Assembly (NCBI RefSeq): GCF_056746865.1
Contig: NZ_CM163382.1
DNA length: 64,000 nt
Reading direction: 5' to 3' (one strand)
Made by a program: the position numbers. Position 1 is the first letter of the stretch. The number at the start of each line of letters is the position of its first letter. Below, piece by piece: positions 9,001-12,000 of this stretch.

Positions 9001-12000
9001 TGCCGGGAGATTGTCAGGTCATTGACCGGGTGTGAGCGGCTCGACGTAAGCGGTAGATATGCCCAATTCCCCCCGATAAATTCATTACCAAACACATTAT
9101 TCAATTTGTTTTTATTTTTCCGCTTTCAGTCATTATCGCTATCGCTTCGTCGGTAATGACTCCAACTTATTGATAGTGTTTTATGTTCAGATAATGCCCG
9201 ATGACTTTGTCATGCAGTGGATTTGCCCCTATATTTCCAGACACCTGTTATCACTTAACCCATTACTGGCCCGCTGCCGTAGATATTCCCGTGGCGAGCG
9301 ATAACCCAGTGCACTATGCGGATGCCATTCGTTATAATGCTCGAACGCCTCTGCAAGGTTCTTTGCTGCCGTTAACCCGTCTGGTTTGGGCATGATACTG
9401 ATGTAATCACGCTTTATCGTTTTCACGAAGCTCTCTGCTATGCCGTTACTCTCCGGACTCCGCACCGCCGTGTTCTTCGGTTCAAGTCCCAACATCCGGG
9501 CGAACTGGCGCGATTTAGCCCCGACATAGCCCCACTGTTCGTCCATTTCCGCGCAGACGATGACGTCACTGCCCGGCTGTATGCGCGAGGTTACCGACTG
9601 CGGCCTGAGTTTTTTAAGTGACGTAAAATCGTGTTGAGGCCAACGCCCATAATGCGGGCTGTTGCCCGGCATCCAACGCCATTCATGGCCATATCAATGA
9701 TTTTCTGGTGCGTACCGAGTTGAGAAGCGGTGTAAGTGAACTGCAGTTGCCATGTTTTACGGCAGTGAGAGCAGAGATAGCGCTGATGTCCGGCGGTGCT
9801 TTTGCCGTTACGCACCACCCCGTCAGTAGCTGAACAGGAGGGACAGCTGATAGAAACAGAAGCCACTGGAGCACCTCAAAAACACCATCATACACTAAAT
9901 CAGTAAGTTGGCAGCATCACCCGCTTTGAAGTGAACAATAACCAGGGTCGTTTCGTATTTCCGGATACCTGGTTTGGCCCATTACTGGGGGAGTTTGAAG
10001 AAGTGCTTGATGCATACGACACTGATGAAATCAGTGAGACGGGTTATATCAACAAACTCAGACGCCTTGCTCAACAGGAGCCTGACTTTATTGATATACA
10101 CGCTCATCTGGCATATGCATTTCTGGAGCAGAATGCCCCGCGTAAGGCACTGAACGCCGCTCTTAAAGGACTGGCGGCAGGTAATCGTCTCATCCCGGAA
10201 AGTTTCAGTGGTGAAATCATCTGGATGCATCCCGAAAACCGCCCTTATCTGCGCGCGCTTTATGCAACAATTCTCGCAAATGTGCACTTACAGCGTCATC
10301 AGGATGCGGTTATGCTCACTGATAAAATACTGGCATACAATCCTGAAGATAATCAGGGTGCCCGCTGGTTGTTGGGCTCAGAACTGTTACGAACAGGCGA
10401 TCATAAGCAAGCCTTCAGTGTACTGAAAGAGCATGCTGATGAATTTTCACCTTACTGGTATGAACTTGGTCTTCTGCATTTTCTGAATGGGGAACATGTT
10501 AAGGCTGCCACAGCTTTTCGTCATGGCTTTGCTACAAACACTTACATCGCGGAAATGCTGTGCGGAAATTTGCATCCATTTCCACTTGCTGTGCGGCATA
10601 ACTTCTCCGGCTCTCTGGATACGGCAGAAGATTACTATGCAACATACTCACCATTATGGGGACAATATCCGGAAGCATTGCTGTTTGTAAACTGGCTCTA
10701 TAACCATTCCTCTGTGCTGCATGAACGAGCAGAAATCATTAAATGCGCCGAAATGCTGATGCAGGAAGATGATTTCGAAATATGCGAAAGCATTTTAAGA
10801 CAGCAGAAGCTGTTGCGGGAAAGAATTGATGAGACACTTTCTGAGGAAATTGTACAGAAATGCAGAAATATTAACGGTGAATATGTCTGGCCCTGGATAT
10901 TGCCGTTTTCAGCAGCAGGAATGAAACACTCAAGCATCCAGCATCAGTAGATATTGCATTAGTGTATCTTTCAAACAAGTAATAATTTATCCACCAGTAA
11001 TAACACAGTCCCCCTTCCCCAGGTTATCGCCCTGGGGGCATTTTCTGAAAGTTTCCTTTAAAAAAGAATAGAGTCGTAAATTACTTTAACGAATTATTCC
11101 TGGAGTTCATTAAAGTTCTTTCGTAATACTTTGTAATCAAACACGTTATGACTGGCATCAAAAACCACGGATTTCCCCTGCCAGCGGGTAATCACCTCCT
11201 CCGGCGTTTTCGGTTGAGCCGGTCTGGTTACGCCCATCCATGCATTAATCAGATAATCATTATACGCAGTGGAAAAAACGCTGTTCACCGTCTGGCGATC
11301 GACATGCTCTCCCAGTGCCGGGCTGTACCAGATAAACATCGGAACATGATAAGCCTGCTGACTGGGTTTTATTCCACCATGAAAATAGGCATGTTCTTTT
11401 GTCGGGTCATACTCCAGACCGTGATCTGAAAAATACATGACGGATGCCTGACGCGTTTCCAGCATGGTGAAAACCTGTCCCAACAAACTGTCGGTATAAT
11501 GAATGGAATTATCGTAACAGACTTCTTCTGTATCCAGCGGTTTAAACACGGCTTTATCTCTGGGCCAGTTACTGCAAACCGGTTCATGGCTGCCCGTCAG
11601 ATGCAGAACAATCAGTTTCCTGCTCCCCGGATTACTGTTCAGTGCTTCAGCCAGGTGTGGGAGCAGTAACTCATCATAGCCTCTGACATAAATTCTGTTT
11701 CTGGCCCGCATGGCGATACTGGCCACAGCCGTTCCGTTCTGTCGGAAAGCGGACTGCGCACTGAGCCACCAGGTATCGAACCCCGCCTGATTCGCCATGT
11801 TGATAATGTTATCAGGGTAATTACGGATATCATGATGCAGTACACTATCGGCAGATAACGCCAGTGGAACAGCCAGCGCGGTGTAAGGTGCGCCACTGAT
11901 TGCCTGAGTGAACAGTTTCAGTCGTGATTTCTGTTTCTGAAGCTCTGGTGTGGTAGGGCGCGAATACCCGTAAATGGACATGTTATCAGTCCTTGCAGAT

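Follow-up and report, generated by a model that had tools for sequence, protein, structure and literature searches.

A 770-bp remnant of two insertion sequences was found at positions 9152-9921 of the window (the whole stretch of 64,000 nucleotides of DNA analyzed in this study). This relic is very probably the scar of a dead composite element, formed when IS2 inserted into IS1 and a deletion at a short stretch of microhomology followed. The limits of the relic were obtained by aligning positions 9000-10100 of the window against the annotated K-12 references IS1A (768 bp) and IS2A (1,331 bp). The IS1 and IS2 parts lie in the same orientation, with their genes on the minus strand. The parts of the relic and its immediate flanks are as follows.

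9143..9151, no strand assigned: IS1 left flank, CGCTTCGTC, with no copy at the right flank.
9152..9217, minus strand: IS1 right-end stub including the right terminal inverted repeat (canonical IS1 nt 703-768; 100% identity to K-12 IS1A over 66 bp).
9218..9510, minus strand: IS2 3' fragment, in which the right inverted repeat is intact and orfB is represented by its last 91 codons (canonical IS2 nt 1039-1331; 7 mismatches against IS2A).
9505..9510, no strand assigned: deletion junction CTGGCG, 6 bp common to IS2 and IS1 (three-way alignment).
9505..9921, minus strand: IS1 left part (canonical nt 1-417; 416 of 417 positions identical to IS1A, the sole difference being at 9718), containing the left inverted repeat, the promoter region, insA, the frameshift site and the first 56 codons of insB.
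9922..9930, no strand assigned: IS1 right flank, CGCTTTGAA, which in IS-free islands lies within the TPR gene, 15 nt from its start.

End-to-end comparison with IS1A revealed that both IS1 terminal inverted repeats, of about 23 bp each, are present, the right repeat ending at 9152 and the left repeat at 9921. Between them, 285 bp of the IS1 interior (nt 418-702) are absent and the last 293 bp of IS2 are in place. The IS2 right repeat directly adjoins, with its terminal nucleotide (9218), the 66-bp IS1 stub. Because this contact is exact, IS2 is recognized as an insertion into IS1, and because IS1 sequence is found beyond the IS2 terminus, the insertion lies inside IS1 and the deletion is internal to the composite. 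The original prediction had read the region as a nested IS-on-IS event, and the exact abutment of the IS2 terminus on the IS1 right-end stub bears this out. It had further described IS1 as truncated, joined to IS2 and present only from its left inverted repeat through codon 56 of insB. The join between IS1 and IS2 stands, as does the left part at 9505-9921 with its intact insA, but the 66-bp right end at 9152-9217 had been missed; the deletion is internal and both IS1 ends survive. The limits given for the feature, 9229-9921, consequently become 9152-9921 once the stub is counted. No other copy of IS1 or IS2 was found in the window, where a repeat search gave just one unrelated 65-nt pair, and no known RNA family was found at 8500-10100.

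When the window was placed in a three-way alignment with IS2 and IS1, similarity to IS2 was found to extend up to 9510 and similarity to IS1 from 9505 onward, giving a 6-bp overlap with the sequence CTGGCG. Exact placement of the breakpoint had been left to pairwise alignment with the IS1 and IS2 references, and the alignment locates it at 9505-9510, which in canonical numbering is nt 1039 of IS2 and nt 417 of IS1. The hexamer occurs at IS2 nt 1039-1044 and at the aligned IS1 position and is present as a single copy in the product, which is the pattern of a microhomology deletion. A microhomology-mediated join had been suggested, and the 6 bp common to both parents and kept once agree with it. 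On the minus strand CTGGCG reads CGC CAG, that is, Arg-Gln, which accounts for the RQ dipeptide noticed earlier near 9504: it is encoded by positions 9505-9510 and is present in both parents. Under a model of random joining, in which (k+1)(1/4)^k(3/4)^2 is summed over k>=6, we estimate the chance of an overlap of at least 6 bp at about 0.001. Both the insertion step and the deletion junction are thus directly visible in the DNA.

The mechanism and the immediate precursor are what we infer beyond this. An IS1 would first have been located just downstream of rafY on the tRNA-Phe (pheU-side) island, and an IS2, oriented alike, would have transposed into this element at a point 66 bp short of the IS1 right end. 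A RecA-independent deletion between the two copies of CTGGCG, one in IS2 orfB and the other in IS1 insB, would then have produced the relic, either by replication slippage or by microhomology end joining. Starting from a simple nested precursor of 2,104 bp, about 1,334 bp would have been lost, comprising IS2 nt 1-1038, the 5-bp target duplication (one copy of the IS2 duplication would have been part of the deleted DNA) and 285 bp of IS1. The deletion would have happened to join codon 56 of insB to codon 211 of orfB in frame. Both processes, insertion of one element into another and deletion between short direct repeats, have long been established.

The window starts inside the integrase of a genomic island that is located at a tRNA-Phe gene, beside dicD, dsbD and cutA. 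The order of genes on the island is integrase, LacI-type repressor, alpha-galactosidase, MFS permease, GH32 hydrolase, carbohydrate porin, relic, TPR gene and phosphoethanolamine transferase gene, and the genes from the LacI-type repressor to the carbohydrate porin constitute a rafRABDY-type raffinose operon. A raf-less island, found in strain F5656C1, matches the window to position 942 and again from position 9922, with 419 unrelated bp in between. The TPR ORF of F5656C1 starts 15 nt before the point equivalent to 9922; hence, in the window, the TPR gene has lost its first five codons and its native upstream region to the IS1 left end. The RefSeq start of the TPR gene in the window, at 9916, is an ATC codon inside the IS1 repeat.

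Comparison of complete E. coli genomes revealed a series of alleles at the raf site. The flank downstream of raf (the 400 bp directly to the left of IS1) was present in 295 genomes, the chromosomal raf island occurring in about 5% of complete E. coli genomes. Most of the 295 raf-flank-positive genomes, 233 in all, contain the relic. An intact IS1 at the identical left junction was found in five genomes, of which TUM18780 and DSM 103246 were inspected, and at least 13 genomes contain the 66-bp IS1 stub together with a complete 1,331-bp IS2. An IS-free allele, estimated from the spread of the matches at roughly 40 of the 295, runs on into a BRO-N domain gene; at the point of the left junction it reads CACTTCGTC up to the junction and GATAGTCTG after it. 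The full-length IS2 of strain FXCREC004 has no mismatches to the relic over 293 bp, and this identity over all common bases indicates that the IS2 fragment of the relic comes from that same insertion. In the genomes with a full IS2, the left end of IS2 adjoins non-IS1 DNA, which differs among strains. For this reason these genomes could derive from the relic by recombination between IS2 copies, rather than being ancestral to it.

These alleles bear on the nature of the precursor. The junction expected of a simple nested precursor is the IS2 left end followed by TGCAG and by IS1 from nt 67 onward (GGGGGCCAGTCTATGCAGCTCCACCGATT). An undeleted nested IS1::IS2 of this type was not found in 5,426 complete genomes: with a 100-bp junction query, the best 60 of 81 candidates were all two separate pieces, and with a 500-bp query the best 25 candidates were also two-piece coincidences. 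The missing precursor gives some room to an unlikely alternative, in which the same mechanism acted on IS2 joined to a separate complete IS1 further to the right, with a deletion of about 2.3 kb. Strains 1517k and PK8275 have an arrangement of this kind, consisting of the stub, a full IS2, 951 bp with the cytochrome b562 gene and a full IS1 in the same orientation, so that IS1 is found 951 bp beyond the IS2 left end. However, the IS1 of these two strains is merely 93-94% identical to the IS1 part of the relic, and their IS2 differs from that of the relic at 4-5 positions, whereas the identical IS2 of FXCREC004 has no IS1 to its right. The presence of non-IS1 DNA at the IS2 left end, moreover, would still need an unexplained event. 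Insertion of IS2 into the resident IS1, followed by a deletion within the nested composite, is the reading preferred here.

Analysis of the coding capacity of the relic revealed the following features.

9229..9672, minus strand: chimeric ORF of 147 aa, InsB 1-56 plus IS2 OrfB 211-301 (ORF and protein alignment).
9591..9866, minus strand: intact insA, 91 aa, P50L relative to K-12 InsA (ORF; Pfam domains Zn_ribbon_InsA and HTH_Tnp_IS1 both complete; IS1 family transposase in RefSeq).
9609..9617, minus strand: IS1 programmed -1 frameshift motif TTAAAAAAC (A6C), intact (located by script).
9887..9914, minus strand: promoter-like site CTGCCA-16-TATGAT in the IS1 left repeat, at the known position of the insA promoter (consensus scan alone).

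The original prediction of an in-frame InsB-OrfB chimera of 56 and 91 codons is recovered as the ORF at 9229-9672, with matches to InsB 1-56 and OrfB 211-301. Residues 1-56 of the chimera show 100% identity to K-12 InsB 1-56, residues 57-147 correspond to IS2 InsD/OrfB 211-301 with one substitution, and the Arg-Gln at residues 55-56 is common to both parents. Pfam domains in the chimera are limited to positions 1-23 of the 131 of DDE_Tnp_IS1 and to rve_3, a C-terminal piece of the IS2 integrase core, with nothing more, and the loss of most of both catalytic domains is as had been proposed. Among the attributes of a functional IS1, the terminal repeats and insA are present and an InsAB' with a complete DDE domain is absent. 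Among those of a functional IS2, the right end alone is found in place of both repeats, and OrfB 211-301 with rve_3 alone in place of the full rve (DDE) core. Judged by its predicted coding content, the relic encodes neither the IS1 nor the IS2 transposase. The RefSeq annotation of the locus consists of a partial integrase-core pseudogene and an IS1 family transposase gene.

In IS1, insB is read solely by -1 frameshifting from insA and not independently, and the role of the A6C motif in this process has been described (PMC12903888). The relevant hypothetical product of the relic is therefore not the 147-aa ORF alone; it would be a predicted 212-aa fusion, InsA(1-85)-InsB'(21-56)-OrfB(211-301). 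The IS1 promoter overlaps IRL, and InsA represses both this promoter and transposition by binding both IS1 ends (PMC12903888). With insA, the promoter-like site and the A6C motif all intact, and the relic being the majority allele among raf-positive genomes, a domesticated repressor may be imagined, in which insA, and possibly the 212-aa fusion with its retained InsA DNA-binding domains, is expressed from the IS1 promoter and damps transposition of other IS1 copies in trans. We consider this very unlikely. No sign of selection was found, and the near-invariance of the relic is explained by its recency and by linkage to the raf operon. Furthermore, InsA is already supplied by every intact IS1, and in strain APEC17 sequence of another IS1 variant has replaced the insA segment. 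For the frequency of the relic, linkage to the raf operon is the simplest explanation; the porin gene of this operon, rafY, has been reported to be associated with chicken isolates (PMC12987596). Overall, our analysis found no detectable selected function for the relic, and its demonstrable role is a passive one, as a block of IS1/IS2 homology between the raf module and variable island cargo.

Analysis of the flanks revealed no 9-bp IS1 target duplication in the window, where CGCTTCGTC on the left faces CGCTTTGAA on the right. None was found in APEC17, TUM18780 or DSM 103246, and the duplication was absent from every IS1-bearing allele examined; hence the original insertion of IS1 is not directly documented. 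The right-hand neighbours of the raf-site elements are as follows.

Window: TPR gene.
APEC17: HTH gene and malic enzyme gene.
TUM18780: partial hypothetical pseudogene, then GTPase gene.
DSM 103246: hypothetical protein gene, other than that of TUM18780.
1517k and PK8275: cytochrome b562.
FXCREC004: CDI immunity gene.

The lack of a target duplication together with the variable right neighbours suggests that IS1 marks a recombination seam. That the alternative right flanks are the same island further along, brought in by simple deletions, was considered and rejected, since they had no matches in the 64-kb window. In strain APEC17 the same relic is present next to another right flank, and nine positions differ from the window over 5,270 bp. 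Eight of these nine differences fall at 9526-9795, a 270-bp stretch inside the IS1 segment, and this cluster points to exchange with a second, slightly different IS1 copy, of which it would be the expected trace. The variable right junctions are thus attributed mainly to homologous recombination between IS copies, with adjacent deletion promoted by IS1 in trans being less supported.

The right flanks in the window and in APEC17 start exactly at the terminus of the IS1 left repeat, without a target duplication, and both IS1 terminal repeats of the relic are intact. IS1 transposase is able to mobilize, in trans, DNA bounded by just IRL and IRR (PMC12903888). From these observations the relic might be regarded as a non-autonomous mini-IS1 that is moved in trans, its right junctions being made by adjacent deletions or inversions from the left repeat, a proposal that we find highly doubtful. 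Of 237 copies, 233 are located at the same raf site, with no dispersed copies; no one-piece copy was found on plasmids and no GTDB species representative has the junction; and the cluster of SNPs in the IS1 segment of APEC17 points to homologous exchange and not to transposition. There is equally little to recommend the view that the relic is not neutral but acts, by way of its preserved promoter, insA and frameshift site and its two intact IS1 repeats, both as a trans-repressor of IS1, through binding of IS1 ends by InsA and the 212-aa fusion, and as a preferred breakpoint that re-couples raf to new cargo. A dead composite with a passive role in recombination is the interpretation followed below.

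The deletion junction was identified in 237 of 5,426 complete E. coli genomes (about 4%), using a 100-bp junction-centred query at >=80% coverage. The left (raf) flank and the junction occur together in 233 of the 5,426, and both flanks are exactly as in the window in 210 genomes. A first search with 881 bp (299 genomes) was set aside because neighbouring IS pieces had been joined and the coverage counts inflated, and junction-centred queries were used instead. The junction-positive genomes come from many hosts and countries. The exact 147-aa chimera is present on 592 public contigs, under names including 'IS1 family transposase' and 'integrase core domain-containing protein'. The chromosome of strain 746 has no IS1/IS2-like sequence besides the relic, so that there was nothing there for an assembly to collapse. 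The concern that an assembly had collapsed two separate IS copies into a chimera, which has the general difficulty of assembling IS repeats and nothing further in its favour, is almost certainly unfounded in view of the identical junction in 237 independently assembled complete genomes (233 with the same left flank), the exact product on public contigs and the case of strain 746.

No one-piece copy of the relic was found on PLSDB plasmids, where the matches were chance-adjacent IS1 and IS2 in three pieces, plus two raf plasmids with IS1 elsewhere; a plasmid origin of the relic was rejected on this basis. A search of GTDB species-representative genomes with the exact junction 30-mer gave no matches. 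Taken as a whole, the population evidence supports a single origin of the relic followed by faithful inheritance. No description of the relic was found in papers on rafY and IS1 or on raffinose and pheU.

Comparison of the relic with known systems places each part of it. With IS1 (K-12 IS1A, 768 bp) it shares the terminal repeats, the promoter region, insA, the A6C motif and the first 56 codons of insB, and its 483 retained bp are 99.8-100% identical to IS1A. Unlike IS1, it lacks 285 bp of insB, the InsAB' transposase and the 8-9-bp target duplication, and its interior is now IS2. With IS2, a member of the IS3 family (K-12 IS2A, 1,331 bp), it shares the right repeat, the last 293 bp and the C-terminal 91 codons of orfB (rve_3), and this fragment is 97.6% identical to IS2A and 100% identical to the full IS2 at the same site in FXCREC004. 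Unlike IS2, it has no left repeat, orfA or frameshift region and lacks the first 210 codons of orfB. For the E. coli lacI gene, spontaneous deletions with endpoints in short direct repeats were reportedly described by Albertini, Hofer, Calos and Miller in 1982. The relic resembles these deletions in its 6-bp repeat, present once in the product, in its kilobase scale and in that no transposase-type end takes part. It differs from them in that its repeats lie in two different mobile elements, giving rise to a chimeric ORF, and in that we infer the event from natural variation, whereas theirs were obtained by laboratory selection. Like the miniIS1 cassette of PMC12903888, the relic lies between IRL and IRR and itself encodes no transposase; in contrast to mini-IS1, it has essentially one locus, no target duplication, no dispersed copies and no sign of movement.

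The components of the relic are ordinary IS1 and IS2, the events are textbook nested insertion and then deletion, and hundreds of RefSeq genomes already carry an annotation of the locus. The relic can serve as a clean marker, of single origin, for one form of the raffinose island on the chromosome; enrichment of this island in chicken isolates has been reported. The relic is also a documented seam, at which IS copies have recombined and one island cargo has replaced another. For annotators, caution is advised with the 147-aa protein named 'IS1 family transposase' or 'integrase core domain', since it is a chimera without a catalytic core. The length of the relic, 770 bp, is close to that of an intact IS1 by coincidence.

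The complete chromosomal raffinose operon follows directly after the integrase gene of the tRNA-Phe island, an observation that also draws on three comparison loci (L006, L014 and L015). The features of the window considered here are as follows.

1060-8651, + strand: complete raffinose operon (repressor, alpha-galactosidase, permease, GH32 hydrolase and porin)
8980-9003: perfect 24-bp palindrome, GCAAGTCCCGACGTCGGGACTTGC
9207-9235, + strand: promoter-like site TTGTCA-17-TATATT, by consensus match only (10/12 matches)
9916-10950, + strand: TPR protein gene, compared with L011 3986-5029
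27975-28039 and 47878-47942: 65-nt direct repeat pair, 86% identity

Comparison of the window with the raf-less island of strain F5656C1 (L011) revealed that similarity ends at 942, a little beyond position 910, where the integrase gene is annotated to end. The left edge of the raf module (943-985) shows no IS end; a hairpin-like sequence is present there, which differs between raf-bearing and raf-less islands, each having its own. The downstream flank of the operon was found in 295 of the 5,426 complete E. coli genomes searched, many of them from poultry. The gene rafY is reported as chicken-associated in a 2026 GWAS (PMC12987596).

At the other side of the dead IS1/IS2 composite (9152-9921), the TPR gene was found to be decapitated. 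Compared with L011, it has lost five codons at its start, along with the 419 bp that natively precede them, and the IS1 left end occupies their place. The RefSeq start of the gene is an ATC codon that lies within the IS1 repeat, and the earliest conventional start is a GTG at 9931. This decapitated form is common to 210 genomes.

The composite of strain APEC17 (L012) differs from that of the window by eight SNPs within 270 bp of the IS1 part (9526-9795), the rest being identical, and its right flank is unlike the window's. The SNP cluster together with the different right flank indicates exchange with another IS1 variant, by which the APEC17 IS1 segment was either overwritten or crossed over, with the exchange reaching the homology edge at 9505, where the IS1 match begins at the IS2/IS1 deletion junction.

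A 500-bp non-coding stretch containing the palindrome and repeated CTGAG motifs separates rafY from the IS1 stub; an Rfam search of 8500-10100 gave no match. The promoter-like site spans the IS1/IS2 junction and, as a consensus match, runs antisense to the chimeric InsB-OrfB ORF (9229-9672); two such sites were seen in the region, with 1.3 expected from shuffles.

Just downstream of rafY, 51 bp (8678-8728) match strain FXCREC004 (L018 5403-5453) at 92% identity as the inverted complement; in FXCREC004 the matching stretch lies directly past the left end of the full IS2. This inverted match hints at an inversion or, alternatively, a paralogous porin-gene terminator region. FXCREC004 DNA also matches 47683-47943 at 99%. 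The 65-nt direct repeats, 19.9 kb apart, are the sole long repeat family detected by the repeat search of the 64-kb window.
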